Assembly: GCA_964632275.1 (NCBI GenBank)
Contig: CAZWCD010000001.1
Location: 28,721 to 75,177, forward strand
DNA from: an uncultured Thermodesulfobacteriota bacterium
GTDB taxonomy: Bacteria; Desulfobacterota; WTBG01
Direction: 5' to 3'
DNA: 46,457 bases
A program made the translations under genes and the position numbers. The notes under the pieces are model-generated. The model worked only from the letters and a program-made list of their open reading frames with translations, searched no databases and had not been told where the DNA came from. Below are positions 3,436 to 45,900 of this stretch, piece after piece; the first letter of the stretch is position 1, and every line of letters begins with the position of its first letter.

Positions 3436-4503
3436 ATGCCTGCTTTCAAGCGCGATTATTATGAAATATTGGGCGTCCTTCCCACCGCAAGCCAGCGGGA
3501 AATACAACGAGCCTTTCGTCGCCTTGCCCTGCTGCATCATCCCGACCGCAATCCGCACGACCGCACATCCGAAGAGAAATTCAAGGAAATAGCCGAAGCA
3601 TACGCGATTTTAAACAATCCGCAGATGCGCAACTCCTATGATGAGCGAACCGCATCCGCCGCCGGTTCCGCTGACGAGTTCCGGCGCGCCGGCGCAAGCA
3701 GAGGTAATGGCGCAACGCCTTCCAATGAATTGCTGCGGGATGTTTTCCGGGATATCCTGGGCTATCCCATCAGGAGTCGACAGAAAGGAGCGAGGGGTGA
3801 AGATCTCAGGTATCACCTTTCCATTCCTTTTGAAGTCGCCGCGCTGGGCGGGCAGGTCGAAATAAACATACCCTATTACACCATGTGCCCGTCCTGCCAG
3901 GGACTCAGGACAAGGCCCGGCAACATCTTCAAGCAATGCCCCCGCTGCAAGGGAACGGGAACGACAAACGTGAAGCGGGGGAAGCGCAGCGCGGAAGCGG
4001 CGTGTAAACAATGCGGGGGGAAGGGAAAGGTTATACGAAAGCCCTGCATGTATTGCAAGGGGAAGGGCAGGCTAAAGCATCCCCGCCTGCTTGCCTTCAG
4101 CATTCCGCCCGGGGTGAGAACGGGCGCGCGGCTGAAGATGCTCAACCGGGGCAACCGGGGCACCAACGGAGGAGCGGCAGGCGACCTCTACATTGTGATC
4201 AATGTGAATCCCCATCCCTTGCTGGACCGGGAAGGGGATGATGTTGTGTTCCATCTTGCCATCAGCTTTTCCCAGGCGAGCCTTGGAGACCGGGTGACCG
4301 TGCCCACCCTCGACGGGGATGTGGTGATGGACATACCGCCCGGGACCCAGCCGGGTGAGATTCTGCGCCTTAAACAGCGGGGCATTCCCTCCGCCCGGGG
4401 CGCCGGGCGCGGTGATCAGCAGATCATCATCCAGGTAACCACACCCCCCAAATTAACCGCACGGCAACGAAGCCTGCTCAGGCAATTCGCCCGGATGGAT
4501 TAG
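3436..4503 (+). CDS. dnaJ: DnaJ-class molecular chaperone (J domain plus zinc finger)
   Basis: 355 aa. J domain with HPD ('LLHHPDRNP'). Four zinc-finger Cys pairs (CPSCQG, CPRCKGTG, CKQCGGKG, CMYCKGKG). C-terminal DnaJ substrate-binding region. The G/F-rich linker is short, so this could be a dnaJ paralog. Confidence 0.85.
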   Translation: MPAFKRDYYEILGVLPTASQREIQRAFRRLALLHHPDRNPHDRTSEEKFKEIAEAYAILNNPQMRNSYDERTASAAGSADEFRRAGASRGNGATPSNELLRDVFRDILGYPIRSRQKGARGEDLRYHLSIPFEVAALGGQVEINIPYYTMCPSCQGLRTRPGNIFKQCPRCKGTGTTNVKRGKRSAEAACKQCGGKGKVIRKPCMYCKGKGRLKHPRLLAFSIPPGVRTGARLKMLNRGNRGTNGGAAGDLYIVINVNPHPLLDREGDDVVFHLAISFSQASLGDRVTVPTLDGDVVMDIPPGTQPGEILRLKQRGIPSARGAGRGDQQIIIQVTTPPKLTARQRSLLRQFARMD

Positions 4504-5629: not shown

Positions 5630-5855
5630 AACCGTACCTCTTCCCTCGACCAGGATAACACAATAACTATAACCTTTTCCCCGGGCTGTCAAGCTCTCTA
5701 TTGGATGAGTCCTTGTAATATAACGGCCGATCTGCTATAGTGCGCGCGAGCTGGAACAGCAACGCAGGGCCGGCCCATTGAAGCGCCCGGTATGCTCCCG
5801 GCAGCGCATCGCTCATCATCCCCGCAGTACAAAACCCATCAGGGAAAGGCACGGC

Positions 5856-6926
5856 ATGGCGCCCAAAACCGCGGTTGTCAAGGACCCCATATACCTCCAG
5901 CACCGAACCGGAGACTATCATCCCGAGAGCCACCACCGGCTGGAGGTGATTTATGATATGCTCAAGGAAACCAGTCTCCAGGGGAGGTTCGCCGAGATTG
6001 CGCCGCGACCGGCTACCGAGGCGGAACTGGAGCTCAATCATTCCCCGGACTATATTCAGCAGGTCGCCGGAACCGCGGGACGGGATTTTACCAGCCTGGA
6101 CCCCGACACCAGCACCTCCCCGCGCTCGTGGGAGGCCGCCCAGATGGCGGCGGGAGGGGTCATGGTGGCGATTGACCGGGTCATGCAGGGTGAGTTTGAC
6201 AGCTGCTTCGCGCTGGTCAGGCCGCCGGGCCACCACGCGGAAAAGAGCTGGGGAAAGGGTTTCTGCCTTTTCAATAACATCGCCATCGGCGCGCACTATG
6301 CGCTCAAGCAGTACGGCCTGGAGCGCATTTTGATCGTGGACTGGGACCTGCATCACGGCAACGGGACGCAGCATTCGTTTTATACTGACCCGCGGGTGCT
6401 GTTTTTTTCCACCCACCAGTATCCCTACTACCCGGGGAGCGGCAGCCTGGGTGAGGCGGGCGAGGGGCGCGGATTGGGGTTTACCGTGAATGTCCCTCTT
6501 TCCGGCGGACAGGGTGATGCAGACTTTCTGGAAATCTACCGGGTGCTGCTGAAGCCGCTGGCGCTTTCGTTCAAGCCGCAGCTGGTGCTGGTCTCGGCAG
6601 GCTATGACATCTATTTTGATGATCCCCTCGGCGGCATGGAAGTCACGCCCGAAGGTTTCGCGGCGATTACCGGCTGTATCATGGACCTTGCGCAGGCAAC
6701 CTGTCAGGGTAAAGTGGTGCTGAGCCTGGAAGGGGGGTATCATCTGGAAGGCCTGCGCAAATCGGTAAAAGCAACGATACAGCAGCTGGCGGGAGACGCC
6801 ATCGCCCAAGAGAAAAAGGTGGAAGGAAAAGTACTGGGCAGCACCGCCAAAATCATTGAGGCGGTGAGAAAGGTCCAGAAGGATTACTGGAAGTGTCTAT
6901 CGGGGGTGCAGGCTAAAAAAATGTAA
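5856..6926 (+). CDS. histone deacetylase / acetoin-utilization (AcuC) family deacetylase
   Basis: 'RPPGHHAE', 'VDWDLHHGNGTQ', 'FFSTHQYPYYPGSG' and 'EGGY' motifs. Start moved from 5778 to the ATG at 5856, which has an AAAGG RBS ('MAPKTAVVKDPIYLQH'). Confidence 0.85.
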   Translation: MAPKTAVVKDPIYLQHRTGDYHPESHHRLEVIYDMLKETSLQGRFAEIAPRPATEAELELNHSPDYIQQVAGTAGRDFTSLDPDTSTSPRSWEAAQMAAGGVMVAIDRVMQGEFDSCFALVRPPGHHAEKSWGKGFCLFNNIAIGAHYALKQYGLERILIVDWDLHHGNGTQHSFYTDPRVLFFSTHQYPYYPGSGSLGEAGEGRGLGFTVNVPLSGGQGDADFLEIYRVLLKPLALSFKPQLVLVSAGYDIYFDDPLGGMEVTPEGFAAITGCIMDLAQATCQGKVVLSLEGGYHLEGLRKSVKATIQQLAGDAIAQEKKVEGKVLGSTAKIIEAVRKVQKDYWKCLSGVQAKKM

Positions 6927-16464: not shown

Positions 16465-17481
16465 CTACTCCTTGCAGATAATGGCCGCCTGTGCCGCGGC
16501 GGCCGTGCCCTCGGCCAGACAGGCCCGTATGTCCTTGGGGCCGCCGGCCGCGCCGGCCACAAAAACCCCTTTGGCCCGGGTAAACACCGGGGCCGGCTCA
16601 CAGGCAAAGAACCCTGATTCCTCGGTTGCAATCCCAAGCGTTTCGGCCATGGATGCCGCGTCGCGCGGAGGCTCCGCGCCGACCGAGAGAACCACCATGT
16701 CCGTCTCCATGAAGCGCAGCGCGCCGTCAAGGGTGTCCTCGTACTGAACGGTCAGCCCGCCGTTCTCCCGCCTGGGCCGCACCGCGGCGGGCTTGCTCCG
16801 GATGAAGCCGATGCCCTTGCGGCGGGCGGTTTCATACTCCAGCTCGGCGCAAAACGGGGTGCGAATGTCCATGTACAGCACCTCCACCCGGCAGCGGGGA
16901 ATCCGCTCCTTGACCTGCAGGGCCAGGTGAACCGCGTACATGCAGCAAAACGCGGAGCAGTAGGTGTGGGTGCGCAGCTCGCGCGAGCCGATGCACTGGA
17001 TGAAGGCCAGCGCGCCCGGCTGCTCGCCGTTTGAGTTTCTGAGCAACCTGTCCCCCTTGAGATTGTCCGCCAGCTCCACGGCGGTAATCACGTCCGGGTG
17101 CCTGCCGAACGCGTAGTGCTTCATGCCTGCGGGATTAAACGGGGTAAAGCCGGTGGCCAGAATGATCGAACGGCACTCCACCTCGCGTGTTCCCTCCGGG
17201 TTCTTGAGCGATGCCTTGAACCGGGGATAGGCACCCCCCAGCGAGATAATCTCGGTGCCGGTGAGCACGGTGACCCGGGATGAGGAAGCGATTGCCTGCG
17301 CCCGTTGTTCGATCAGTTCCGGGGCCGGCGTCCCGCCCCCGAAGGTTGCCCCCAGGGACTTGAGGTTGCCGCCCAACCGATCCTCGCGCTCCGCCAGGAT
17401 AACCGCTATTCCCACGCGCGCCAGGCTGGCTGCTGCCTGCAAACCGGTAATCCCGCCGCCCACCACAAGCACGCTACTCAC
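16465..17481 (-). CDS. hdrA: short HdrA-like FAD/Fe-S protein (paralog 1)
   Basis: 338 aa, GTG start. 'LVVGGGITGLQAAASL' and 'FIQCIGSRE...YCSAFCCMYA'. Its start overlaps the TAG of the read-through mvhD by 8 nt. Confidence 0.8.
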   Translation of the reverse strand: MSSVLVVGGGITGLQAAASLARVGIAVILAEREDRLGGNLKSLGATFGGGTPAPELIEQRAQAIASSSRVTVLTGTEIISLGGAYPRFKASLKNPEGTREVECRSIILATGFTPFNPAGMKHYAFGRHPDVITAVELADNLKGDRLLRNSNGEQPGALAFIQCIGSRELRTHTYCSAFCCMYAVHLALQVKERIPRCRVEVLYMDIRTPFCAELEYETARRKGIGFIRSKPAAVRPRRENGGLTVQYEDTLDGALRFMETDMVVLSVGAEPPRDAASMAETLGIATEESGFFACEPAPVFTRAKGVFVAGAAGGPKDIRACLAEGTAAAAQAAIICKE

Positions 17482-17908
17482 TGGCCGGCACTCCTTCCCG
17501 TTTCATGGGCCCCAGGCCCTTGAGATCTTCAGTAAAATCGCGCATCACCTCGGCGAACTTCCCCCCTTCCGAGGCGGATATCCACTCAAGGCGGAAGCGC
17601 GCCGTCTCGATGCCCATCTGCTCCAGATAGCGGGTGGCGTTCTTTATTCTTCTCTCGGCGTTATAATTACCATCCTGGTAATGACATTCGCCGAGGTGTC
17701 ACCCGGCCACCAGCACCCCGTCGGCGCCGTCGATGAACGCGCGCAGGATCATGGTGGGGTCGATGCGGCTCGAGCACATGACCCGGATGATCCGCGCCGT
17801 GGCGGGATACTGCAGTCGGCTCACGCCGGCCAGGTCGGCGCCGGCATAGCTGCACCAGTTGCAGCAGAACGCGACGATGCGGGGAGTGAAGTTGTGCTGT
17901 TCATTCAT
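17474..17908 (-). CDS. mvhD: MvhD-type (methyl-viologen-reducing hydrogenase delta) protein, probable selenoprotein (UGA at codon 70)
   Basis: ATG at 17908 ('[28 protein letters not shown]...'). In-frame TGA at 17699-17701. Read-through gives 74 more codons ('[13 protein letters not shown]...[17 protein letters not shown]') that align with the Cys-containing MvhD domain of 21855..24290. TAG at 17474-17476. This fills an otherwise empty 217-nt gap in the operon. Confidence 0.8.
17654..17695 (-). promoter_or_regulatory. SECIS-like stem-loop downstream of the mvhD UGA
   Basis: mRNA: UGA-CAC-CUCGGCG-AAUGUC-AUUACCA-GGA-UGGUAAU-UAUAA-CGCCGAG. Two perfect 7-bp helices separated by an internal loop. 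The structure starts 3 nt after the UGA and has a G-rich apical loop. Confidence 0.55.
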
Positions 17909-20900
17909 TGGATACCTTCTCCATCTTGACTGCTGCCTGATCAATCATTGCCTCTATCTGTTCGGTGGTGAAGTGGAGCGGGGAAATGGCTCCCACCGGA
18001 CAGGTCGCGGCGCAGGAACCGCACCCCTTGCAGGAGGCGGGGTTGATCGTCGCCTTGCGCGCATTGAATGCCAGGGACTCCAGACGCACCTTCCGGTCCT
18101 CCAGGCTGATCGCCCGGTAGGGGCAGACCTCTACGCACAGGCCGCACCCCTTGCAGCGCGTTTCATCGATGACCGATATGTTTGCCTCTGCCTCAACCTT
18201 TCCCCGGGCCAGCAGGATCCCGGCGCGCGAGCCCGCCGCATTGGCCTGGGCGATGGTCTCTTCGATGTGCTTGGGATAGTGGGCCATGCCGCAGAGAAAG
18301 ACGCCTTCGGTGGCAAAATCAACCGGGCGCAGCTTGACATGGGCCTCCAGGAAGAAACCTTCCTTGCTCAACGGGACCTTAAAAAGCTGACCCAGCTCCT
18401 TGTTGCTTTCCGGCGGCACGGTCGCCACTGAAAGCACCAGCAGGTCGGCTTCAAGGGAGAGCCGCGCATCAAGGAAGGGATCCCGGGCGCTGATCATCAG
18501 CCGGTCTCCATCAAAACCGGCCTCGGGTTTGTTCTGGAGGGTATAGCGGATAAACACCACCCCTGCGTCGCGCGCCTTCCGGTAATAGTCCTCCTTGAAT
18601 CCGTAGGTCATCATGTCGCGGTAGAGAACATAGACATTGACCTCCGGGTTGCGATCTTTCAGCGTCAGCGCGTTTTTTACCGCCTTGGTGCAGCATATCC
18701 GGCTGCAGTACGGGCGCTCCTCGCTGCGCGATCCCACGCACTGGATCATCACCACGTTTTTTGCCTGCTTGATCCGGGGGCTTTGTTTCTCCAGCTCGCC
18801 CTCCAGCTCTTTCTGGGTGAGGACGCGGCCGTCCTTTCCGTACCCGTATTCATCGGGCTTGAATTCCTGCGCCCCGCTGGCAATGATCGCCGCGCCGTGT
18901 TTGATCTCCACCGGTTCCTTCCCGCCCTTTAAGGCAACGGTTGAGGTGTAGCTTCCCACATATCCGGAGACCTTTTGGAGCTCGGCGCCGGTGTGCACGG
19001 TAATGCGGGGATGCTTCATCACCCGGTCGACGAGCGATGCCAGGTATTCCTGCACATCTGCGCCTTCCAGGGTGCTGTAAAGGGACCGTGCGGTGCCGCC
19101 GAGCTGCGCTTCCTTTTCCAGCAGGAAGACCGAAAAGCCCTGATCGGCAAGGTTGAGGGCGCTCACCATGCCGGCAATGCCCCCGCCGATAACCAGCGCG
19201 GAGGGATTGAGCTCCAGGGTAAGCCGCTTGAGCGGCACAATCAAGCCGGCCCGCGCCACCGCCATGCGCACCAGGTCCTTGGCCTTCTCGGTGGCGGCCG
19301 CTTTATCCTGCTGGTGCACCCAGCTGCACTGATCGCGGATGTTGGCCAGCTCAAACAGGTAGCGGTTCAGTCCCGCCTCCTGGATGGTTTCCTGAAAAAG
19401 CGGCTCGTGGGTGCGGGGCGAACATGAGGCAACGACCACCCGGTTGAGCTTGTGCTCGGCAATGAGCGCCTTGATTTTCTCCTGGGTATCCTGGGAGCAG
19501 CTGTAGAGGTTCTCTTCCGCGTACACCACGTTGGGAAGTTCCCGGGCAAGGGCAACCACCGATTTCACATCCACCACCGAACCGATATTGATGCCGCAGT
19601 GGCAGACAAACACACCGATGCGGGGGGTCTGCCCCGACACGTCCAACTCGGCGGGGAGCTTTTTCTCCTGCACCAGCATCTTGCGTGCGGGACTGAGCAG
19701 GGCCGCGGCAAGGCCGGCGGCGCCGCTTGACTGGGCCACCGTTTCCGGGATGTCCTTCGGCCCCTGGAAGAGGCCGGTCACAAAAATCCCCGGCTTGCTG
19801 GTATCGAGCGGGGAGAGCGTCCCCGAGCTGCAGAACCGGTGCTGGTTGAGATCAATCCCGAGCGCTGCGGCCAGCTCCCTGCTGCTCCGTGACGGCTCCA
19901 AGCCCACCGAGAGCACCACCAGCTCAAACTCCTCCTCCCGTATCTTTCCCTCTTCGCTGACGTACTTTATCAGGAGGTTGCGTGTATCCGGCAGCTCCTT
20001 GACCGACGATACATTGGAGGGAACAAAGCGTATGCCGTGCTTGTCCCGCGCCTCGGTGTAGTATGCGTCAAAGCCCTTGCCGTATGCCCGGATATCCATG
20101 TAAAAAATGGTGATGTCCATTGCCGACGCATGTTCCTTGGCAATGATCGACTCCTTCACCGCGTACATGCAGCACACCCCGGAGCAGTAGCCGTTGCCGT
20201 ACTGAAGGTCGCGCGAACCGACGCACTGGATGAAGGCGACGCGTTTGGGCTCGGCCTTGTCCGAAGGCCGCCGGACGTGTCCCTCATAGGGGCCCGAGGC
20301 CGAAAGCAGCCGCTCGAACTGGATGCTGGTGACCACGTTCTCGTAGCGGCCGTAGCCGAAGGGATATTTCCGGGCCGCATCGTATTCGTCAAACCCCGGC
20401 GACAGGATCACCGCGCCCACCGGGAGGTCCCGCACTTCCTCCTTCATCTCAAAGTTGACCGCCCCGGCCTTGCACACCTTGACGCAGAGCTGGCACTTGC
20501 CCTTGGTCAGGAAGCGGCAGTAGCGGGGATCGATGTGGTAGACATGGGGCACCGCCTGGGGATAGGGGATGGAGATCGCCCGGCGCTGGGAAAATCCCTC
20601 GTTGAACTCGTCGCTCACCTTCGAGGGGCATTTCTCGGCGCAGGCACCGCAGGCGACGCATTTGGCCGGGTCCACATAGGACGGCTTGCGCAGGACGGAA
20701 ACGGTGAAGTTGCCCGGCTCCCCGCTAATGCCGGTAATCTGTGAGTGGGTGAGGATTTCAATGTTGAGATGTCTGCCGCACTCCACCAGCTTGGGTGACA
20801 GGATGCACATGGAGCAGTCGTTGGTGGGAAAGGTCTTGTCCAGCTGGGCCATGGCGCCGCCAATGACCGGAGAGCGCTCCACCAGGTACACGAAGTACCC

Positions 20901-21005
20901 CGCGTCGGCCAGGTCCAGCGACGCCTGCACCCCGCCCACGCCCCCTCCCGCCACCAGGACGGATCCGACTATGGTGCGCTCCCGCGCCGCTTCCGGCTCT
21001 GTCAT
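17901..21005 (-). CDS. hdrA: large double-module HdrA-like flavo-iron-sulfur protein
   Basis: 1034 aa. Module 1 has '[17 protein letters not shown]', '[17 protein letters not shown]', 'FIQCVGSRD...[10 protein letters not shown]' and ferredoxin Cys motifs. The middle has '[14 protein letters not shown]'. Module 2 has '[16 protein letters not shown]' and '[23 protein letters not shown]'. The C-terminus carries '[12 protein letters not shown]' and '[12 protein letters not shown]'. Confidence 0.88.
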
Positions 21006-21198: not shown

Positions 21199-21690
21199 TC
21201 AAAACGGGAAGGGTGTTTTCTTCTCTTCGGAACCGGCCGCTTCGGATGTCCCCCAGAACACAAAGCTGACCTTTTGCTCCTGTCCGGTTTCATTGATCAA
21301 TTCATCAAGCGTCATGGTGCCGGCAATGGAGCGGTCGAAAAGCAGGATTCCTTTTGCGGAAAATGCGTAGCGGTAGTGCTTTGTTTGTTTCATGACGGTG
21401 GCGGAAAAGTCCGCCGCGAACATAAGGCCGTCCCTCGTGTAGGTGCCGGAGGATTCCTTGAAGTCAACGCCGGGAATCTGTATCTCGAAGGCGTGGCCGT
21501 CGCTGAAGATAAAAAGGGATGAGGAAATGCTGTGGCCGGGAGAAAGGCTGAGAAAGCCGGTTGAAAACGTCAGGGGAACTGCTGCGCTGGTCCCTGCACT
21601 GCGGCCGCTCTCCTTCGAATCTGCCGCCGGACCCGCCGCAAGGGAACCGCTCTGCAATGCCAGCATCAACAGGCAGAGCAAGGTTCGCAT
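21199..21690 (-). CDS. hypothetical secreted protein
   Basis: Start set at 'MRTLLCLLMLALQSGSLAAGP' (signal-peptide-like). No motif that I recognise. Sits alone between two hdr gene sets, with gaps of about 165 nt and about 190 nt on either side. Confidence 0.45.
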   Translation of the reverse strand: MRTLLCLLMLALQSGSLAAGPAADSKESGRSAGTSAAVPLTFSTGFLSLSPGHSISSSLFIFSDGHAFEIQIPGVDFKESSGTYTRDGLMFAADFSATVMKQTKHYRYAFSAKGILLFDRSIAGTMTLDELINETGQEQKVSFVFWGTSEAAGSEEKKTPFPF

Positions 21691-21854
21691 GCAAACCGTA
21701 CCCGCGTGAGACCAGTGCGATTGCATATTCGCTGTCCGCGTGCATGTTTTGGGAGCACCAGTGATAGACTGGAAGGCAGATAATCTCGCAACGTGCCCTC
21801 CCCCGGCGCTTCAGCACCCTCACATTCCCCCGCTGCGGGCTGCGCACGCTGCGC

Positions 21855-24290
21855 TTACTGGGTGCCGAGCGCCTTGATGGTTTCTTCCACCTCCTGGTCG
21901 CTGACGCTCTGCCGCAGCGCATCCATGCGCTTCATGACCTCGGCAAACCGCACGCCTTCCGCCGCGCTGATCCACTCAAGCTGCAGCCGCTCCGTCCGCA
22001 TGCCCAGCGTTTCCATCTTCTTGTGGATTTTGGCCACGCGCTTTTCCGTCCAGTGATTGGCGTTGATATAGTGACAGTCGCCGATGTGACAGCCGCTCAC
22101 CAGGATGACCGGGGCGCCCTTGCTGAACCCGCGCCACACGAAATCCTCATCAACCCGGCCCGAGCACATGGTGCGGATAATCCGCGCATTGGGCGGATAC
22201 TGCAGCCGGGAGACACCGGCAAAGTCGGCGCCGGCGTAGGAGCACCAGTTGCAGGCAAAAACCAGCACCTTCTCCCGGGGGCGCTCAGCCAGCATTGCGT
22301 CGATCTGCCCGGTGATCTGCTCGTCGGTGTAGTGATTCATGATGATGGCGCCGAACGGACATTCGGCGGCGCAGGTGCCGCAGCCGGCGCAGGCCGCCGC
22401 CGTGACCACGGCGGGGGCCTTTTGCTTGGTGTTGACCGTGATCGCATTATAAGGACATACCTCCGCGCACTTGCCGCAGGACCGGCAGTGCTCCTCGACC
22501 ACGGTTGAAATGATGGGCTCGGCAGTGATTTCGCCCCGGTGCATGAGCCGGATGGCCCTGCCGGCGGCGGCGGAGGCCTGGGTCACCGATTCCTTGATGT
22601 CCTTGGGCCCTTCAGCGCAGCCCGCAAAAAAGACGCCCCGGGTGGCGGCATCAACCGGCTGCAGCTTGGGATGGGCTTCAAGAAAGAATCCGTCCGGCGT
22701 GAGCTGCAGCCCGAGCATCTCCTGCAGCCGGTGGGTTTCGGCCGCCGGCTGCACCCCCAGCGCAAGAACGAGCATGTCCAGGTCGTAGCGGTCAATCCTG
22801 CCGGTGGCGGTGTTCTCGACCGCGACCTGCAGGCTTCCGTCAGGCAGCTCCTTCACCGTCCCGGGAAGGCCGCGCAGGTAGTGAACGCCGAGGCGGCGGC
22901 TGCGCATGTACAGGTCCTCGAAGCCCTTGCCGAAGGCGCGGATGTCGATATAAAACACCTTGATGCTCATGTCCGGGTAATGCTCCTTGAGCATGAGGGT
23001 GCTTTTGATGGTGTTCATGCAGCAGATGTTGGAGCAGTAGGTCCCTCCATTGCGCAGCGAGCGCGACCCCACGCACTGGATGAATCCCACCGAGCCCGGC
23101 CTTTTGCGATCTGTCGGCCGCACCAGTTCGCCCTGGGTGGGCCCCCCCGCGTTAATCAGGCGCTCCAGTTCAATGCTGGTGACCACGTTTTCAAACCGGG
23201 TGTAGCCGTACTCGTCAAGCTCCGCCGGGTTGTAGGGCTCGACGCCGGTGGCCACCACGATGGTTCCCACCTGTTCGGTCAGCTCCTCGTCGGACATGTG
23301 AAAGTTGATGCAGTGCTTCTGGCAGACCTCCAGGCACTTCGCGCAGACCGCCGGATTGAAGCCGAGGCACTCCTGGCTGTTGATCATGTAGGAGGACGGC
23401 ACCGCCTGGGGAAAGGGCTTGAAAATCGCCCGGCGCGAGGAAAGCCCGGCATTGTACTCATCCGGCCGCACCACCGGGCAGACGTTCACGCAGTCCCCGC
23501 AGGAGGTGCACTCGCGCTCATCCACGTAGCGGGCGCGCTTGCGCAGGGTGATCTTAAAATTGCCGACCGAGCCCTTGACGTCGACCACCTCGGTGAGCGT
23601 GTACAGCTTGATGCGGGGATGTCGACCGACATCCGTCATTTTGGGACCGAGTATTCATATGGAGCAGTCCATGGTGGGAAAGGTCTTGTCCAGCTGCGCC
23701 ATCAGCCCGCCGATGGAGGGCTGCCGTTCCACCAGGACCACCTCGTAGCCGCTGTCGGCAAGGTCAAGGGCGGCCTGGATGCCGGAGACGCCCCCGCCGA
23801 TCACCATGGTGCGCCGGGTGAGCGGCAGCGTCTCCTCCTCGAGGCTGCAGAGCGCGGCGGCCCGGCTGACCGCCATTTTCACCAGGTCGATGGCCTTCAG
23901 GGTTGCGGCCCCGGGATCGTGCATGTGCACCCAGCTGCACTGCTCGCGCAGGTTCGCCATTTCCATAAGGTAGGGATTGAGCCCGGCGCTCTGCATCATC
24001 TTGCGAAAGGTGGGCTCATGCAGCCGGGGCGAGCATGACGCGACCACCACCCGGTTTATCTCCGCCTCTTCGATGTCTTTGGCTATTTCCGTCTGACCCG
24101 GGGTTGAGCACGCATAGGCGATGACCTTGGTCAGCACGACCCCCGGCTCGCCTGCAGCGGCTTCGGCAACGCGCGCGCAGTCAACCGTCTGGGCGATGTT
24201 CATGCCGCAGCGGCAGACAAAGACCCCGATGCGGGGTGATTGCGCCGATGCGGCGGTTGCCGGCGTCACCTGCTGGCTTTGCGTTTTCAT
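21855..24290 (-). CDS. hdrA: HdrA / MvhD fusion protein (QmoB-like architecture), probable selenoprotein (UGA at codon 212)
   Basis: Two ORF-track ORFs (23655..24362 and 21855..23639) are in the same frame and separated only by the TGA at 23655-23657. The joined sequence 'DKTFPTMDCSI-U-ILGPKMTDVGRH' parallels '[24 protein letters not shown]' in 17901..21005. Start at ATG 24290 (RBS AAGGA). The C-terminal MvhD domain reads '[16 protein letters not shown]...VSGCHIGDCHY'. Confidence 0.8.
23617..23634 (-). promoter_or_regulatory. SECIS-like hairpin downstream of the hdrA UGA
   Basis: mRNA: GGAUGUC-GGUC-GACAUCC, a 7-bp stem with a GGUC tetraloop. The loop GU lies about 30 nt 3' of the UGA. Confidence 0.45.
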
Positions 24291-24336
24291 ATCCGTTTTC
24301 CTTTTGCACGTAAAGAGTGACCCGCAACCGGTGGAC

Positions 24337-25914
24337 TTACTCCCACCTGATGGTCCGGGCAAGCACGCCGGTCAGATCCATCATCTCCATTGTGATATCG
24401 TTTCCCCTGAAGGGATCCTCCATGGCGCAGGTAAGATGAATCTGGCACTTGGGGCATGAGGTCACCAGCAGATCGCTGCCGGTTGCGCGGGCCTGCTCCA
24501 GTCGCTTGACCTGCAGCGCCTTGCTGTACGCGTCGCACCCGGTCCAGGCGCTGTTGCCGCAGCAGATTGAGGCGCGGCCGTGGTCCTGCATTTCCCTGAA
24601 GCTATCCTGCCCCAGCCGTTCAATCAGCCGGCGGGGCAAATCGGGCCGGCCGTCAAACCGGCTCAACCGGCACGAGTCCTGGAAGGTCATGGATCGGCCG
24701 AGCCGGCTGAAGGCAACTTTTCCCTTGCTGATCTCCCGGTCGAGCAGCTCGTAGAGATGAATCACCTCGACGCCGGTCTCGACGCCGAATGCCGGGTAAT
24801 CGTGCTTGAAGGTCCGGTAGCACTCGGGGCAGGACGTCACCACCTGCTTGATGCCCCGCGCGCGCAGGGCCTCCACGTTCAGCCGCGCCAGGCGCAAAAA
24901 ACTGTCGCGGTCGCCGGACCAGAGCAGATCATGGCCGCAGCACCGCTCATCGGAGAGCAGCGCCGGCCGCATATCGAAGAAATTTAACAGCCGCAGGCTA
25001 TCGGCCAGGATGTCCCGCGTGCGCAGGTTCAGGAAATTCTGAAAAAAGAAATCAAAAAATGCGGCGCAGCCGCCCCAGTAGAGCATGGTGCTGCTGGGGT
25101 CAACCGCGATGTCCGGGGGAAGCCAGTCCCACCGCCGCGGGGTCAGCCGCGGGGCAGCGAGCGTTCGCTGCAGCGTCTGGAAAAAGCCGGCATGAGCCTG
25201 GGCCGGGCGGTCGCCGCGGTAATCCAGCGATATGCGCAGGTCGCGGACAAATTCCGAAAAGCGAACCGCCGACGGGCACCGCTCGTAGCACATGCCGCAG
25301 GTCAGGCACGAGGCAACCGCATCCTTCACCGCGGGCGAATCGGTATCGCCGGCAATAATCGACGAAGCGAGCGAGCGGGGCGAAAACGCCTTTCCCGACA
25401 GCGACAGCGGGCATGCCGATGTGCACTTGCCGCAGTCCTGGCAGGCAAACACGTCGTGCCGCTGCACAATGCCGGTCAGCGGCTCCTCAACCGGCGCTTC
25501 CGGCGCGGATGCCGCAATCGGGGTTTTGCCCAGCGCGCGAATTTCCGCGGTGAACCGTTTGAGAAATGCCAGCATGCCCTCATGCTCGTCGGGCAGAAAG
25601 GTTTCAAAGCGCAGGCGCTCGCGGTTCAGGCCGAGCAGGCCGAGGATTTCGCGGGTGTTCCCGATGTTCTTCTCCGAGGTCTCGGTGCCGCTGCCGTAGC
25701 GGCAGGCGCCCGGCCGGCACCCGGCAAGGGCCACGCCGTCCGCGCCGAGCTCAAAGGCCTTCAGCAGCAGGGCCCGGTTGATGCGGCCGGCGCAGGGCAC
25801 CCGGACCGCCTTTATTTCATCGGGTATATCGGCGGCCTGCTCCTGCAGGGTATGAAAGGCCGAGTGCGGCCCCCAGTTGCACAGATAGAGCAGTATGGTA
25901 AACGTATCCTTCAT
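24337..25914 (-). CDS. MvhD-like domain fused to an HdrD-like (2x[4Fe-4S] + CCG domains) oxidoreductase
   Basis: Start set at ATG 25914, which forms an ATGA overlap with the upstream stop. N-terminus 'FTILLYLCNWGPHS...VPCAGRIN...LAGCRPGACRY', then 'CQDCGKCTSACP' and 'CLTCGMCYERCP', then CCG motifs 'RCCGHDL' and 'ICCGNSAW'. Confidence 0.8.
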   Translation of the reverse strand: MKDTFTILLYLCNWGPHSAFHTLQEQAADIPDEIKAVRVPCAGRINRALLLKAFELGADGVALAGCRPGACRYGSGTETSEKNIGNTREILGLLGLNRERLRFETFLPDEHEGMLAFLKRFTAEIRALGKTPIAASAPEAPVEEPLTGIVQRHDVFACQDCGKCTSACPLSLSGKAFSPRSLASSIIAGDTDSPAVKDAVASCLTCGMCYERCPSAVRFSEFVRDLRISLDYRGDRPAQAHAGFFQTLQRTLAAPRLTPRRWDWLPPDIAVDPSSTMLYWGGCAAFFDFFFQNFLNLRTRDILADSLRLLNFFDMRPALLSDERCCGHDLLWSGDRDSFLRLARLNVEALRARGIKQVVTSCPECYRTFKHDYPAFGVETGVEVIHLYELLDREISKGKVAFSRLGRSMTFQDSCRLSRFDGRPDLPRRLIERLGQDSFREMQDHGRASICCGNSAWTGCDAYSKALQVKRLEQARATGSDLLVTSCPKCQIHLTCAMEDPFRGNDITMEMMDLTGVLARTIRWE

Positions 25915-28900: not shown

Positions 28901-29291
28901 CTTTTTTCCCGTCGGGCAGGTTGACCGGACACGCTTCAAGACACCTGCCGCAGAGCGTGCATTTTTCGGGATCGACGAAGGTCTGCTGCGGGGTGATGCG
29001 CACGGTGAATCCCTGGGTGCTGTGCTTGATGGAGTTGACCGTGGCCGGCATAAAAAGCCTGATGCCGGGATTACGCAGAATACGGATCAGCCCGGGGCGG
29101 TGGGCGAAATTGAAGCGCACCCCCGAGGCAAGGCGCCACTCGTCGCGATAAAATTTCTCGTTCAGATCCGGCTCGCCGTCAACCAGGGCGACCGGCACGC
29201 CCAGCTCGCCGAGCTTGTTGGCCGCGGCGATGCCTGCCGGGGTTGCACCCAGAATCATGACCCGCTGCAGCCTGCTTTTTTTACGACTCAT
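25911..29291 (-). CDS. HdrL-like multidomain flavo-Fe-S oxidoreductase (HdrA-like + GltD/NfnB-like NAD(P)H domain + ferredoxin domains)
   Basis: 1126 aa. 'VMILGATPAGIAAANKL'. The GltD-type segment is 'CQERCPLGVNAQGYI...LPGICGRICTHPCEAACRR' plus 'VAVVGSGPAGLAAAAELA'. Also 'CLQCGICSQCLQC', 'RIGVFACRCNDALGW', and C-terminal 'CRGCGRCSRYCP' and 'CKGCGNCISVCP'. Its start forms an ATGA overlap with the upstream gamma-subunit gene. Confidence 0.8.
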   Translation of the reverse strand: MSRKKSRLQRVMILGATPAGIAAANKLGELGVPVALVDGEPDLNEKFYRDEWRLASGVRFNFAHRPGLIRILRNPGIRLFMPATVNSIKHSTQGFTVRITPQQTFVDPEKCTLCGRCLEACPVNLPDGKKAIRIASRRSIPGRARIEKAKTPPCQERCPLGVNAQGYIALVQAGKYAEALEMIRRENVLPGICGRICTHPCEAACRRSDIDAPVAIRTLKRFVTDSAAVTNGAAADRPAPVTSPKTEVAVVGSGPAGLAAAAELARNGCEVTVYEKETLAGGLLRYGIGRYRLPDDILDQDLRYIQDLGVQLVTGHPVDLSLGLDGLLKKFAFLVLATGSWLDRKLGVPGEDLQGVDGCLAALNRLYRGEISEVQGRVAVIGDGNSAFDLARALVRLGAAVTVLSWFARDAIPADPEEVSDAIAEGVTIRDKLRVVAFKGGGSALEQICCVPTIPGPPDANGIAWPVTDPAGTQQVLSFDRAYVAIGQAGPLTPTAGAGLQVNRQGYLVIDERMKTGLNRIMAGGDAVTGPTSVVEAMASGRNAARSILQTVFKKDFLPPPPQRPDERDYQPIPAAAPRLTREEMAVLHPEARRTTFREVAQGLSADQAAREAERCLQCGICSQCLQCAAACSQIGAITHDEPAREVVENAGVVIIADPAAGHRISGEDVIRAYDTKSAGSDTLSLVVRGFAAASRAMMILGGSPQRSKGHSVSFSPPGPALSSDMRIGVFACRCNDALGWLEEMTASINELPRREGIVHAESVTAACIDEGAAAILRSIREKGITRVVLASCACCSLNFVCSSCTDQRSRLKAALFTGTGVSRSMVEMCNLRGEVLRLARMHPERALARFRELIDSSIERALMLKPLPSPARNYNFTTAVIGSSEAAAHSAQVLAQMGYEVFWFNRAEDGDAAGHPGIHCFSAARVTGVRGMLGDFQVLFQDGAGADQFIQAGAVIMSAKAAEEIKHIYQAELPGRDIISSMQQAGRVGVPFMYPGTTSVSGLYIADPAGIRVSDRERGAAAAALAAASMPQGPRSSRGFTVVVDESICRGCGRCSRYCPYQAISYKQNGVGGWVASVDDALCKGCGNCISVCPSNAADSPFRNHAFLERVLEEALLPSEAGSNP

Positions 29292-29884
29292 GCCGTCTTC
29301 CCCGTCTTGTCGCCCGCTTTTTTATCGCGGGTCTTCATCGTGGCGACGCCGTAATCCCATCCCCGGGTAAAGGCCTTGCGGTTCAGCTCTTCCGTTCCCC
29401 GGGGGACCATGGATGTCACCGCATCCTCGGCCGCCTTCCGGGAAATGGCCTTGGCAACCGAGGCAAAAAAACCGAGCATGACGATATTGGCAATCATGGT
29501 GCGGCCCATCTCCTCGGCCATGCGTGTCGCGGGGATGCCGTAGCACTCCAGCCCGCAGTCGCCGGGCCGGACCAGGTCCTGTTCGATCAACAGCAGCGTG
29601 TCGCTTTTTGCCGACCCCGCGAATTTTTCAAACCCGCTCTGCGACATGGCGACAAGAATGTCAGGCCGCCGCACATAGGGATAGCGAATCGGGTCCGGCG
29701 AGACGATGACCTGCGCGCTGCAGAACCCGCCTCGCGACTCCGGCCCGTATGACTGCACCATGGTGCTTTCCCGGTGGTCGCCGATGGCTGCCGCCCGGCC
29801 GACAATGCTGCCGATGAGCACAATGCCCTGCCCGCCGAATCCGGTAAAAACAATTTCTCTTTTTTCCAACCGCGCTGCTGTCAT
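29288..29884 (-). CDS. 2-oxoacid:ferredoxin oxidoreductase, gamma subunit
   Basis: 198 aa. 'IVFTGFGGQGIVLIGSIVGRAA' is typical of the Por/Kor gamma family. Confidence 0.85.
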   Translation of the reverse strand: MTAARLEKREIVFTGFGGQGIVLIGSIVGRAAAIGDHRESTMVQSYGPESRGGFCSAQVIVSPDPIRYPYVRRPDILVAMSQSGFEKFAGSAKSDTLLLIEQDLVRPGDCGLECYGIPATRMAEEMGRTMIANIVMLGFFASVAKAISRKAAEDAVTSMVPRGTEELNRKAFTRGWDYGVATMKTRDKKAGDKTGKTA

Positions 29885-29959
29885 GACCGATTACCTGAGC
29901 GATACATGTTTGCTTGCTGCTTACAATGCCTTCGAGTTGTTGAAAGCAACCTGCGCAGG

Positions 29960-30799
29960 CTATTCCTTGCGGTACAGCCGGTCATACATATCCTGCCAGG
30001 TGGGTCGATCCTCGTCGATGAAGGTGCCCAGCACGATGCCTTTCTTCATATCCAGGGTCGCATCCGCGGGACTGATGCCGTTTTTGATCAGGGTGCGGTT
30101 CTGGTAAATGGCCAGGGTGTCAAGCGGCTTTTCCTTGTTTCTGCGGCCGTAGTTCACCGGGCAGGGGGAAAGCACTTCGATAAAGGAGAACCCCTTGCGC
30201 TGCAGGCAGCGCACGATCGATTCCTTGATGTCGCGGGTGTGCAGGATGGTCCAGCGCGCGACATAGGTGGCCCCGGACGCCCAGGCAAGCAACGGCAGGT
30301 TGAAGGGAGACTCCGGGTTGCCCGAGGGCGTGGTGGTGGTCCGCGCCTGGCTGGGGGTTGTGGCCGCAACCTGCCCGCCGGTCATGCCGTAGTTCAGGTT
30401 GTTGATGCAGATGACGGTCATGTCGATGTTGCGCCGGGCGGCATGAATGAAATGATTGCCGCCGATGGCAAACAGGTCTCCGTCGCCGCTGAAGACAATC
30501 ATGTTGAGCGCGGGATTGGCGACCTTCATGCCGGTGGCAAAGGGGATTGCCCTCCCGTGGGTGGTGTGAAAGGAGTCCATTTTCGCGTAACCGGCGCCGC
30601 GCCCCGAGCAGCCGATGCCGGATACCATCACCGTTTTGTCCACATCAACCCCGCTGGCCTTGATTGCCTGGAGGCATGAGGAAAAGGCGGTCCCGATGCC
30701 GCAACCCGGACACCATATGTGCGGCATGCGATCGGTGCGCAGCAGGTCATCCAGCGGATGCACCATCTCGCGGTTCCGGTTGTCAAGCTTTTCAGCCAT
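29960..30799 (-). CDS. 2-oxoacid:ferredoxin oxidoreductase, beta (TPP-binding) subunit
   Basis: 279 aa. 'WCPGCGIGT', 'SGIGCSGR' and the 'GDGD' TPP-binding region. Overlaps the end of the alpha subunit gene by 8 nt. Confidence 0.9.
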   Translation of the reverse strand: MAEKLDNRNREMVHPLDDLLRTDRMPHIWCPGCGIGTAFSSCLQAIKASGVDVDKTVMVSGIGCSGRGAGYAKMDSFHTTHGRAIPFATGMKVANPALNMIVFSGDGDLFAIGGNHFIHAARRNIDMTVICINNLNYGMTGGQVAATTPSQARTTTTPSGNPESPFNLPLLAWASGATYVARWTILHTRDIKESIVRCLQRKGFSFIEVLSPCPVNYGRRNKEKPLDTLAIYQNRTLIKNGISPADATLDMKKGIVLGTFIDEDRPTWQDMYDRLYRKE

Positions 30800-31952
30800 G
30801 GGGTGAGAAGGCCTCCCGGATGGTTTTCACTGCGTCATCGGGGGAGATGATGGTTCCCCCCGCATGTCCGACCAGAACGGCGGGGACCCTGCCCCCGGCG
30901 CAGCGCTCAACCTCAAGATGCATCTGCCCCAAGTTTATCTCCACCGTCACAAATCCCCTGACCCGCGCGGCCAGCTCCCGTATCTGCTTTTCCGGAAACG
31001 GCCATACCGTGATCAGCCGCAGCATGCCCGCCTTGATGCCTTCGCGCCGCGCATCCTCAACCGCGGCGAACCCGGTGCGCGCCGAGCACCCGTATGAAAT
31101 GATGGCAATCTCGGCATCGTCAAGCATGAATGCCTCGGTGCGGACGATGGCATCAAGGTTGTTCCGGATTTTTCCGGTTATCCGGTTCAGCATGGCCGCG
31201 TGCGCCTCGGCATGCATGGCCGGGTAGCCCTGCTCGTCGTGGGTGAGCCCGGTAATGTGCACACGATAGCCGTCTCCCGCAGCAGGCATGGGGGCGATGC
31301 CCCCCGGCCCGGCCAAAAACGGCCGGAATCGCTCCTTTGATCCTGAAGGCTTTGTGCGAAACGCGGTTTTTATCTTTTTCGCGTCGGGAATGACCACCCG
31401 CTCGCTCATGTGCCCCACGATCTCATCGGTCATCACCAGCACCGGAACGCGGTAGGTTTCGGAGAGATTGAAGGCATCAATGGTTTGGTAAAATATTTCC
31501 TGCGGCGACATGGGGGCCAGCGCGATGATTTCATACGGGCCGTGCGAACCCCACCGCGCCTGCATCATATCGCCCTGGGCGCCGAGCGTCGGGAGGCCGG
31601 TCGAGGGCCCACCCCGCTGCACGTTGACGATGACACAGGGGGTTTCGGTGCAGAGACCGAGCCCCAGGTTTTCCATCATCAGGCTGAAGCCGGGGCCGGA
31701 GGTGGCGGTCATGCTCTTGACCCCTGCCCAGGAACCGCCGAGCACGGCGGCGATGGCGGCGATCTCATCCTCCATCTGGATATAGGTGCCGCCCACCTCG
31801 GGAAGGCGCTCGGCCAGGTGCTCGGCCACTTCAGTTGCCGGAGTGATGGGATAGCCCGCGAAAAATCTGCATCCTGCGGCAACGGCGCCTTCGGCGCAGG
31901 CCTCATCTCCGGTCATAAAGTGCTCGCCGGTAAGCACGGTCTTGTCCGCCAT
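30792..31952 (-). CDS. 2-oxoacid:ferredoxin oxidoreductase, alpha subunit
   Basis: 386 aa. 'GDEACAEGAVAAGCRFFAGYPITPATE...MEDEIAAIAAVLGGSWAG...TSGPGFSLM'. Confidence 0.9.
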   Translation of the reverse strand: MADKTVLTGEHFMTGDEACAEGAVAAGCRFFAGYPITPATEVAEHLAERLPEVGGTYIQMEDEIAAIAAVLGGSWAGVKSMTATSGPGFSLMMENLGLGLCTETPCVIVNVQRGGPSTGLPTLGAQGDMMQARWGSHGPYEIIALAPMSPQEIFYQTIDAFNLSETYRVPVLVMTDEIVGHMSERVVIPDAKKIKTAFRTKPSGSKERFRPFLAGPGGIAPMPAAGDGYRVHITGLTHDEQGYPAMHAEAHAAMLNRITGKIRNNLDAIVRTEAFMLDDAEIAIISYGCSARTGFAAVEDARREGIKAGMLRLITVWPFPEKQIRELAARVRGFVTVEINLGQMHLEVERCAGGRVPAVLVGHAGGTIISPDDAVKTIREAFSPHG

Positions 31953-42706: not shown

Positions 42707-42900
42707 ATGCTAGATTGATTTGATTTTTCCCTTTCAGATTATCAGAAAAGTTAGATGCAAAACAAATAAAAAATGATCTGCCTTGGTCCAATTAAAATGC
42801 TCATTAAAAACTTATGAATCACATTACCTGAAAGGAGGTGAGGGTACCGTTCTATTCATTTTCAATCCGGTTCAATTCTAATCATGGAGGAGGTAGAAAG

Positions 42901-45900
42901 ATGAAAAAGCTTTCAGTTGTATTAATGTTCGGTCTTGTCATGGGGCTTATGGCAGGCCCGGCCTTTGCCCAGAGCTATTGCCAGGACGTTCTGGAAACAG
43001 GCAATCCCGGCGGAAGGACAACCGGTCTCAAAACATGCGATACGGTAAATCCGGAAACCCTCAATCCGGGGGATACGTTTTCCATTGACATCTGGGCAAC
43101 CGAAATACCTGAGCCGATTATCTCGAGCGGATTTGAGATGTTCTACAATCCTGCCCAGGTGAGTCTCCTCAGCGTTCAGGCGTATGACGGCGTTGACATC
43201 GCCGGCGGCCCCTGGGATGGAACGGCCACCCTCAAGATACCTGATGCATATGGACCGGGGTCCTTCGTCCTGGCCGTGGTGCAGTTAGGCACCTGCCCGG
43301 TACCCGATGCGGGCGGTGACGTTATCGTCGCCAAGCTAACCTTCCAGTGCCTGGCAAACGGCAGCAGTGGGATTGGCGTCAAGGGAATAGACGGCTTTGA
43401 CACAACCGTCGGTTGTACCAGCGGCGTCGTCTATGATGCTCCAATGGGTACCAATACGCTCACCGTTACCCAGGGATCAGACGGCTGCACCACCAATGAA
43501 GAGTGCAGCGACGGCATTTACTGCAATGGTGCCGAGACCTGCAACATCGGTAGCGGCGAGTGCCAGCCCGGAACCGCGGTTGTCTGCAATGATGCGATTG
43601 CCTGCACCACCGATTCCTGCAATGAAACCACCGACAGCTGTGATTACATCCCCAACAACGCGGCCTGTAATGATGGGGCTTACTGTAATGGCGCCGAAGT
43701 GTGCACGGCAAGCGGTTGCGCGCCCGGAACGCCGGTCAGCTGCCCCGACGATGGATTGTTCTGCAACGGCACCCCGTCCTGTAACGAAACAACGGATTCC
43801 TGCCAGAGCAGCGGTGCTCCCTGCACGCCGCCCGAAGTGTGCAACGAGGATACGGACACCTGCGCTGTGGTCGGATGCAGCACGGATGAAGAATGCAGCG
43901 ATGGTTCGTTCTGCTCCGGCGTTGAGACCTGCAATACCAACACCGGGCAGTGCCAGGCCGGAACGGCGGTCAATTGCAATGACAGCATTGACTGCACCAT
44001 CGACTCCTGTAATGAAGGTTTGGACCGATGCGACAACACCCCCAGCGACGCGGCCTGCAGCGATGGCCTGTTCTGCAATGGCAACGAGGTCTGCGATGCG
44101 CAGAACGGCTGTCTCGATGGAACGCCGGCAGATTGCGCAGATGACGGCGCATTCTGCAACGGCACCGAATCCTGTGACGAGGCCGCCGATTCCTGCGTCA
44201 GCAGCGGCAACCCCTGTACCCCGGGGACCGTTTGCAACGAGGAAACAAACGGCTGTGATCAGCCGCCGGGATGTGAAGTGGATGAAGAATGCGATAACGG
44301 ACTGTTCTGCGACGGCGCGGAAAGGTGTGTTGACGGCACCTGCCAGCCCGGAACGGCAGTCAATTGCGACGATGAAGTTGCCTGCACCACTGATTCATGT
44401 AACGAGGCAACGGATAGCTGTGATCATGCTTCCGACAACGCAGTCTGCAGCGACGGCAATTTCTGCAACGGAAACGAGATCTGCGATGCGGTGAACGGCT
44501 GCCTGCCCGGGGAAGCGGTGAGCTGCGCAGACGACGGATTGTTCTGCAACGGCACCGAGTCCTGCAATGAGGCCGCCGATTCCTGCCAGAGCAGCGGCGA
44601 TCCCTGTCCGCAGGGCACGGTTTGCAATGAGGCTACCGACGCCTGCGACGAAATCCCGGTGGAAGGCTGCACCTCCAACGCGGAATGCGATGACGGCAAC
44701 TTCTGCAACGGCAAGGAAAAATGCAGCGTTTCGTACAAACAATCGGGCGGAACGCCTCAGCCACCGGTTCCCGGCGTCTGCGTAGCCGGAACGCCGGTTG
44801 ATTGCAACGACGGAGTGGACTGCACTATCGATTCCTGCAATGAGGCCAAGGACGCGTGCGATCACGCCCCCGACAATGCGGTCTGCGATGACGGGAATTT
44901 CTGCAACGGAAATGAGGTCTGCGCTCCTGATTCCATCATGTCCATTGCAACGCAGGAGAGCAGCGGCAGCATGAGCGGTTGCAAGGCCGGTGCAGCAGTC
45001 ATCTGCCAGGATAACGGGTTGTTCTGCGACGGTATCGAGTCCTGCAATGAAGCCAAGGATTCCTGCACCAGCAGCGGCAATCCCTGCACCCCGGACGTAA
45101 CGGTGTGCAACGAAAAAACCGACACCTGCGACCCGGTGGGCGGCTGCACCTCTGACAAAGAATGCGATGACGGCATTTTCTGCAACGGCAAGGAAACCTG
45201 TAATGCCTACGTAAAGGCGACCGGCACCAACCCGCCGGTTACCGGCGTCTGCCAGGACGGAATTCCGGTTGATTGCAGCGACGGCCTTGACTGCACCATT
45301 GATTCCTGTAACGAGGAGAAGGACGCGTGTGATCACGCTCCGGACAATGCGGTCTGCGACGACGGCGATTTCTGCAACGGAAACGAGATTTGCGATCCGT
45401 TAAAGGGCTGCCAGGATGGCGCAGCCGTCAGCTGCCCGGATAACGGGTTGTTCTGTGACGGTACCGAGTCCTGCAATGAGGCCGATGATTCATGCCAGAG
45501 CAGCGGCAATCCCTGTACCCCGGGCGTCACGGTGTGCAATGAGAAAACTGACACCTGCGACCCGGTGGGCGGCTGCACCGCTGACAAAGAATGCGATGAC
45601 GGCATTTTCTGCAACGGCAAAGAAACCTGTAATGCCTATGCAAAGGCAACCGGCACCAACCCACCGGTTACCGGGGTATGCCAGTCCGGCATTCCGGTTG
45701 ACTGCAACGACGGTGTGGACTGCACCATGGATTCCTGCAACGAGGATACCGACAGCTGCGTGAATACCGCGGACGATGCCTATTGTCCGGATGACGGCAA
45801 GTTCTGCAACGGCACCGAGTCCTGCGATGCCGAACAGGGCTGCATCTCTACGGGCAATCCCTGCGCAGCCGGAACGGTGTGCAATGAGGAGAAAGACTCC

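Follow-up and report, generated by a model that had tools for sequence, protein, structure and literature searches.

HdrA has been listed among the bacterial selenoprotein families since 2006, with multiple copies in Syntrophobacter fumaroxidans, Syntrophus aciditrophicus and others (PMC1794560), and hdrA genes containing selenocysteine (Sec) were also described in Desulfobacterium autotrophicum (PMC2702500). Cryo-electron microscopy of Hdr-Vhu-Fwd of Methanococcus maripaludis (2026) placed Sec197 of HdrA beside a Cys, between the N-terminal cluster A3 and the flavin adenine dinucleotide (FAD), where it may form a selenylsulfide (PMC13518236), and a comparative study from 2022 that summarised the crystal structure described Cys197 in the thioredoxin-reductase domain of one HdrA protomer as a ligand of the N-terminal [4Fe-4S] cluster of the other (PMC9012536). 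Fusion of MvhD to HdrA is documented in Methanosarcina and Archaeoglobus fulgidus. Here we analysed a stretch of 46,457 nucleotides from an uncultured Thermodesulfobacteriota bacterium (assembly GCA_964632275.1, contig CAZWCD010000001.1, positions 28,721 to 75,177; hereafter the window), in which, according to an earlier note made from the DNA letters, two adjacent open reading frames (ORFs) are a single selenoprotein gene of the HdrA family, a family whose standing as an established selenoprotein family the literature cited above bears out. Based on our comparative sequence analysis, it is highly probable that both ORFs constitute a single gene, hdrA2, whose product is a flavo-iron-sulfur protein of 811 residues in which HdrA is fused to MvhD, and that the UGA at codon 212 is decoded as Sec.

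The minus-strand ORFs 23655..24362 and 21855..23639 share one frame, the second starting 18 nt past the TGA of the first, with a spacer of exactly five sense codons, ATA CTC GGT CCC AAA, between this TGA and ATG 23639 (Table 1). When joined from ATG 24290, the frame comprises 811 codons with a single internal stop and ends at a TAA (21855-21857). As read from the sequence, a Shine-Dalgarno-like AAGGAAA is located 6-12 nt 5' of ATG 24290, which lies 46 nt past the stop of the upstream gene, and no Shine-Dalgarno-like site was found upstream of the internal ATG 23639. The earlier note had described the shared frame with its single TGA and five codons, as well as a parallel between the joined sequence and the large HdrA encoded elsewhere in the window (..[17 protein letters not shown]..), and both descriptions are exact; its 811-residue product with HdrA and MvhD parts is likewise borne out by the translation and by the Pfam, structural and NCBIfam comparisons given below.

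In the joined protein, the Pfam matches follow the order FAD/pyridine-nucleotide-disulfide oxidoreductase N-part, single Fer4, 2x[4Fe-4S] ferredoxin domain and C-terminal FlpD/MvhD. Residues 17-668 aligned unbroken to residues 2-651 of 5odc_A (755 bits, E = 8e-226), straight across the UGA, and residues 673-789 aligned to 5odc_D, these chains being HdrA and MvhD, respectively, in the solved structure from Methanothermococcus thermolithotrophicus; the MvhD chain 9sw2_D aligned as well. The HdrA domain set is present, consisting of an N-terminal Fe-S domain, an FAD/thioredoxin-reductase-like domain and inserted as well as C-terminal ferredoxin domains, and is followed by MvhD, in which Cys and not Sec occupies the MvhD Sec position (VSGCHIGDCHY). 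The NCBIfam model NF040770 (HdrA2) scored 1172.3 bits against a curated cut-off of 1100, spanning model positions 1-776 of 777 and protein residues 20-801, and this cut-off was passed solely by the whole joined protein. Taken as a family label, the name HdrA2 should not imply CoB-CoM heterodisulfide reductase activity for the product of a non-methanogen. Judged by the collinear alignment, the HdrA2 cut-off and the conservation of both halves among orthologues, we regard the unity of the gene as established.

The product had previously been called QmoB-like. QmoB, which we take to be an HdrA-related flavoprotein with a C-terminal MvhD-like domain, is a fitting analogy for the architecture but not for the family, since the full-length protein scores as HdrA2 above the NF040770 cut-off and the neighbouring genes are not qmoABC or aprAB. 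Membership of QmoB was therefore rejected on both the family score, HdrA2 being the best family, and the gene neighbourhood: no qmoA, qmoC or aprAB gene was found beside hdrA2, the neighbours instead being homologues of HdrL, an MvhD-HdrCB fusion, HdrA, MvhD, HdrC and HdrB as well as 2-oxoacid:ferredoxin oxidoreductase subunits.

The in-frame UGA aligns on Cys197 of 5odc_A, within [18 protein letters not shown], confirming that it replaces the second Cys of the C-S-x-C motif, as previously proposed. We then scanned one genome per species for orthologues and kept the best 80 of 598 relatives, which are 62-79% identical to the window protein, nearly all span residues 1-808 and belong mostly to Desulfobacterota, a few being from bins that bear the label Aminicenantes, Planctomycetota or Abyssobacteria. 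Isolates with an orthologue include Desulfosarcina variabilis, Desulfocicer vacuolatum DSM 3385, Desulfoprunum benzoelyticum and Desulfocarbo indianensis. A TGA was present at the identical codon in 78 of these 80 orthologues and TGC or TGT in the remaining two. Both halves were complete at 78 loci, with a median identity to the window of 64% for the N-terminal and 73.5% for the C-terminal half. Since TGA terminates the same gene in 32 orthologues, as well as the genes for HdrL and the 1034-aa HdrA in the window, UGA is an ordinary stop codon elsewhere in these genomes. The position of the internal TGA is thus far beyond chance, as it joins two halves collinear to one solved protein and recurs at the same codon in nearly all orthologues. 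A genuine gene split at this point, named in the earlier note as the observation that would speak for separate genes, was looked for among the orthologues and did not occur; the alignments instead revealed a Sec/Cys pair.

Public protein entries present a different picture. The full-length database homologues, which measure about 800-820 aa and include several named HdrA2, have Cys at the column without exception (103/103), whereas the 16 closest database relatives of the window protein (77-91% identity) are fragments of 593-606 aa, each starting at the Met six codons past the UGA, and a U residue was present in none of the 120 database proteins retrieved. A 3.1-kb Logan contig (run SRR8925802) encodes an identical C-terminal protein and is split likewise. 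On this comparison, the two-ORF layout is an annotation artefact recurring across the retrieved public entries, and we count it as established from the alignments that the UGA stands on a Sec/Cys column. Moreover, in the 79 Sec-type sequences (the window and the 78 TGA orthologues), the five codons that separate the UGA from the Met carry no amino-acid change at all, while their third-position entropy is 1.0-1.7 bits. An intergenic stretch from a stop to a restart codon would not be expected to vary solely at synonymous sites, indicating that these five codons are translated.

Downstream of the UGA, the RNA can form the hairpin GGAUGUC-GGUC-GACAUCC, which starts 20 nt past the UGA, has its loop 27 nt past it and is part of the minimum-free-energy fold; both the sequence and the spacing of about 20 nt had been given correctly in the earlier note. 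According to the bSECIS model of the bacterial Sec insertion sequence (SECIS), such elements have an apical loop of 3-9 nt, a stem of 4-16 bp, a G in the first two loop positions that is usually followed by G or U, a distance of 16-37 nt from the UGA to the loop and a minimum free energy <= -7.5 kcal/mol (PMC13188914). With a 4-nt GGUC loop, a 7-bp stem, a spacing of 27 nt and -9.4 kcal/mol, the hairpin of the window agrees with this model on all counts (4/4).

The comparison across genes revealed strong selection on this element. The hairpin was kept in 79/79 Sec-type genes with an invariant GGUC loop, and RNAalifold returned it as the sole consensus structure of the 79 sequences; a conserved lower helix was also sought with RNAalifold and found no support, leaving a 6-bp core alone. 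Standard pairs filled 97.8% of pair cells, as compared to 24-58% when the partner was slid by 1-3 columns. Within the hairpin, the codons GAT, G[T/C]C, GGT and CAT had a third-position entropy of 0-0.1 bits, as opposed to 0.8-1.95 bits in adjacent codons, and the Gly of the loop was encoded by GGT in all 79 genes, while the Gly seven codons upstream was encoded by GGT in 38, GGG in 36, GGC in 3 and GGA in 2. Pair 29-36, which joins the second base of a Val/Ala codon on its 5' side to the synonymous third base of an Arg codon on its 3' side, was C-G in 46 genes, U-A in 25 and U-G in 8, with neither C-A nor any mismatch. When followed along a neighbour-joining tree of the remainder of the protein, the state of this pair changed at least 16 times, of which at least 11 changes were between the C-G and the U-A/U-G classes, and the covariation is hence not the result of one inherited event.

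As a control, we used 13 Cys-type genes, comprising metagenome contigs that encode the same peptide with a Cys codon and the two Cys orthologues. Here the loop Gly was GGT in 2/13 and 7/7 pairs were kept in 1/13; Arg was encoded by CGG, CGA, CGT, AGA or AGG, His by CAT or CAC, and any of the four bases was found at the third position of the Val/Ala codon. Since the Cys-type genes do not show the constraint, it is tied to the presence of the UGA and not to the peptide or to codon usage, and we consider the Sec-specific selection on the hairpin established by these alignments. One Cys-type (TGT) homologue (L081, positions 4280-4345 of the plus strand, metagenome contig Ga0101944_10008857) has an essentially intact GAUGCC-GGUC-GGCAUC at the SECIS position, which looks like the fossil SECIS of a recent Sec-to-Cys conversion; fossil SECIS elements were described previously (PMC1794560). 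The GGUC loop is likewise retained in another Cys-type gene (L091).

Several observations nevertheless weigh against Sec decoding of this gene. When tested alone, the hairpin was statistically unremarkable, with z = -1.27 compared to shuffled sequences in a 31-nt context and z = -0.10 in a 71-nt context, and 53 of the 1605 TGA trinucleotides (3.3%) of the G+C-rich window precede an equally good, model-compliant hairpin. Owing to these weak z-scores and this background, the hairpin would be unconvincing from one sequence, and it is the comparative data that make it convincing. Rfam gave no match, either for the whole window at gathering thresholds or for a 161-nt region at E <= 10, which we judged uninformative. 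The gap of 20 nt between the UGA and the stem also exceeds the spacing in the SECIS of Escherichia coli fdhF, which we take to be about 11 nt, and is within the range of the published model. Finally, none of tRNA-Sec, selA, selB and selD was found in the 46-kb window, where ARAGORN detected no tRNA at all and the NCBIfam matches of the other large ORFs were RpoD, a GGDEF response regulator, an aldehyde dehydrogenase, LeuRS and 2-oxoacid:ferredoxin oxidoreductase subunits. A second UGA-containing gene is located 6 kb away, namely mvhD (17908..17474, minus strand, 144 aa), whose UGA (17701..17699) occupies the column at which Sec is known in MvhD/FrhD (VLVAG-U-HLGECHY). Downstream of this UGA, a two-helix SECIS-like fold is formed by the lower helix CUCGGCG/CGCCGAG, the upper helix AUUACCA/UGGUAAU and the loop GGA, with -20 kcal/mol, z = -5.05 and 0/200 shuffles as stable. 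Thus, mvhD, with a UGA on a known Sec column and a strong fold behind it, indicates that the host probably decodes Sec.

Three other explanations of the internal TGA were considered. If the TGA were a real stop, an N-terminal HdrA fragment of 211 aa could assemble with a 594-aa protein, started anew at ATG 23639, into a split HdrA, in line with the two ORFs annotated by gene callers, the 16 closest database proteins that begin at the same Met and the split Logan contig with the identical protein; split or rearranged HdrA genes moreover exist in Deltaproteobacteria (PMC1794560). However, the five spacer codons encode the same amino acids in 79 genomes while changing freely at synonymous sites, the ATG 23639 is not preceded by a Shine-Dalgarno sequence, the stop coincides exactly with a cofactor-related column at which 2 orthologues and 103 homologues have Cys, and a hairpin conserved in a Sec-specific manner follows the TGA, making two separate proteins very unlikely. 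A nonsense mutation, leaving a pseudogene, or a sequencing or assembly error would require only one base change (TGC or TGT to TGA), but the same TGA is found in 78 independently assembled genomes of different species and in the independent Logan contig, and both halves are still under purifying selection. This possibility is effectively refuted by the comparative data, and we assign it a negligible probability.

The UGA might also be read through with a residue other than Sec, either by near-cognate suppression with Cys or Trp or due to a reassigned UGA, with the hairpin merely stimulating the process. It is known from other systems that Cys can be inserted at Sec codons under selenium limitation, and the lack of Sec machinery within the window agrees with this explanation. 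On the other hand, Sec has been documented at this column of HdrA, the hairpin, in which the G-G/U loop start is invariant, conforms to the SelB-type SECIS model, and mvhD as a second gene of the window combines a classical Sec column with a strong SECIS-like fold, so that we find read-through with a non-Sec residue most improbable. A reassigned genetic code was ruled out, as TGA ends neighbouring genes and also the same gene in 32 orthologues.

Sec decoding of hdrA2 thus remains the reading we favour; that SelB binds, that Sec is actually inserted and what the residue does are inferred by us from the pathway established for bacteria. Loaded with Sec-tRNA(Sec), SelB would bind the GGUC hairpin while the ribosome nears the UGA and would deliver Sec at this codon in competition with release factor 2, after which translation would run on through ILGPKM... 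to the TAA at 21855. In the protein, Sec212 would close the C209-x-x-U212 motif of the FAD-binding thioredoxin-reductase-like domain and could serve either as a ligand to the N-terminal [4Fe-4S] cluster of the partner protomer or as part of a redox-active selenylsulfide beside the bifurcating FAD, as both roles were described for residue 197 of the archaeal protein. That the two residues numbered 197 are equivalent is strongly suggested by the alignment count together with the numbering used in the two papers. We can only speculate, and regard it as rather doubtful, that two further things hold together: that the Sec form is the default HdrA2 across Desulfobacterota and neighbouring phyla, hidden by truncated database entries, and that the selenolate of Sec212 may ligate the N-terminal [4Fe-4S] cluster of the partner in trans, resulting in a Sec-ligated cluster at the bifurcation site instead of a thiol/selenol redox pair.

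Table 1. Coordinates of hdrA2, its recoding elements and the adjacent upstream gene in the window.
Feature	Position	Strand	Description and basis
hdrA2 selenoprotein gene (predicted)	21855..24290	-	811 codons + TAA; HdrA fused to MvhD; translation, Pfam, 5odc alignment, NF040770
In-frame UGA, predicted Sec212	23655..23657	-	Last position of C209-S-I-U212; Sec/Cys column in orthologues and homologues; Cys197 of 5odc_A
Five sense codons I-L-G-P-K	23640..23654	-	Between the UGA and the Met taken by gene callers as start of the second ORF
Candidate SECIS hairpin	23617..23634	-	7-bp stem GGAUGUC/GACAUCC; GGUC loop at 23624-23627; bSECIS model and comparative data
C-terminal MvhD (FlpD) domain, residues 675-790	21921..22268	-	PF02662, E = 6e-46; aligns to 5odc_D and 9sw2_D
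Shine-Dalgarno-like AAGGAAA	24297..24303	-	Precedes ATG 24290
Upstream partner gene, MvhD domain fused to HdrC/HdrB-like (CCG) domain	24337..25914	-	Pfam FlpD, Fer4, CCG; NCBIfam matches

On the minus strand, hdrA2 is preceded by genes for the alpha, beta and gamma subunits of a 2-oxoacid:ferredoxin oxidoreductase (31952..29288), an HdrL-type protein of 1126 aa (GltD-like and HdrA-like) and the MvhD-HdrC/B-like fusion, and is followed by an orphan ORF of 175 aa, a 1034-aa double HdrA, the Sec-type mvhD, a short HdrA-like flavoprotein, HdrC, HdrB, another short HdrA-like protein and an HdrD-like protein. A homologue of the MvhD-HdrCB fusion was encoded directly upstream of hdrA2 on the same strand at 71/80 orthologous loci, indicating that the two genes form a conserved module, and HdrA2 most likely works with the upstream MvhD-HdrCB-like protein. 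Judging from the location within an HdrL/2-oxoacid:ferredoxin oxidoreductase cluster, the two may belong to a complex with which a Desulfobacterota-type anaerobe bifurcates or confurcates electrons by means of flavin. Since the orthologue alignments to the MvhD-HdrCB ORF start at its residues 38-47, the listed 565-aa ORF from GTG 26034 appears to be about 40 codons too long, with ATG 25914 as the likely start. The stop of the HdrL gene (TGA 25913-25911) overlaps this likely start (ATG 25914-25912) as ATGA, which suggests translational coupling of the two genes.

Further observations were made on the surrounding genes. The 1034-aa protein (17901-21005, minus strand), the end of whose gene is overlapped by the mvhD ATG (17908), contains two HdrA units with complementary parts in one chain: unit 1 begins at the FAD-binding GGGVGG and has the C-S-M-C (Cys197) motif but no N-terminal Fe-S domain, while unit 2 has an N-terminal-type domain ([13 protein letters not shown]...) in front of it but no DKTFPTxDCSxC motif. 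The same complementarity between Cys197 and the N-terminal domain was described for the fused HdrA of anaerobic methanotrophic (ANME) archaea and Moorella, in which the order of the domains is the reverse of that in the window (PMC9012536). Between hdrA2 and the large hdrA, the 175-aa ORF (21199-21726, minus strand) encodes a protein with a hydrophobic, signal-peptide-like N-terminus and was also called on the independent Logan contig; neither Pfam nor a tblastn comparison with the 80 orthologous loci gave a match, and from these searches the ORF resembles an orphan that was inserted into a cluster conserved in other respects. Elsewhere in the window, an ORF of 1176 aa (42838-46368, plus strand) and a pair of overlapping opposite-strand ORFs of about 380 aa each (5667-6926) had no NCBIfam match at E <= 1e-8.

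The HdrA family, the position of the Sec residue and the mode of recoding were all known already, and our results do not change the knowledge of HdrA selenoproteins in kind. What is new is that the gene of the window and its orthologues represent a Sec form of the fused HdrA2 type, which is split in every public entry retrieved, and that they share as SECIS a minimal hairpin that is very uniform and for which the signature of selection is well controlled. In annotations, a single selenoprotein should be entered for this gene. As the closest entries are fragments and none contains U, metabolic reconstructions of such anaerobes based on domains miss an intact bifurcating HdrA2. A Sec-HdrA2 also marks its organism as selenium-dependent for part of the cytoplasmic electron-transfer machinery. 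The findings are useful for annotation and as a SECIS data set: together, the 79 Sec-type and 13 Cys-type genes for the same peptide are a natural experiment on a minimal bacterial SECIS consisting of a 6-bp stem and an invariant GGUC at 27 nt from the UGA, in which the choice between Val and Ala is seen to be tied to a synonymous Arg codon.

Among the known systems, the Sec-HdrA proteins of Deltaproteobacteria (S. fumaroxidans, S. aciditrophicus and hdrA1/hdrA2 of D. autotrophicum HRM2) likewise have a SECIS within the ORF and are encoded in clusters rich in Hdr and MvhD genes of selenoprotein-rich anaerobes. The HdrAL/POR cluster of S. fumaroxidans (Sfum_0012-0018) resembles the window in that HdrL/HdrA2 are encoded next to oxoacid:ferredoxin oxidoreductase genes. 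For D. autotrophicum, by contrast, the published description gives HdrA domains and MvhD as distinct genes located together, whereas the window encodes them, as far as descriptions can be compared, in one polypeptide. The Sec-HdrA of Methanococcales (Sec197 of M. maripaludis; Methanocaldococcus jannaschii) belongs to the same family and has Sec at the same column, in a C-x-x-U of the FAD domain as in the window. However, the archaeal SECIS is located in the 3' untranslated region and not inside the coding sequence directly after the UGA, and the archaeal HdrA of about 650 aa has a separate VhuD/MvhD in place of the fused MvhD. Partner subunits and the physiological acceptor presumably differ from those of archaeal HdrA as well, given that a sulfate-reducer-type bacterium has no CoM-S-S-CoB. 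The HdrA2 proteins of Methanosarcina and Archaeoglobus have the same end-to-end HdrA-MvhD architecture as the window gene, and the full-length HdrA2 members retrieved from the database differ from the window gene and its 78 TGA orthologues by having Cys where these have a Sec-type UGA. With regard to the RNA element, fdhF of E. coli and the consensus bacterial SECIS likewise have a stem-loop within the ORF just 3' of the UGA, with a small apical loop starting with G-G/U. The hairpin of the window has no sequence similarity to these and differs in its short perfect stem of 6-7 bp, its tetraloop and the lack of a conserved lower helix.

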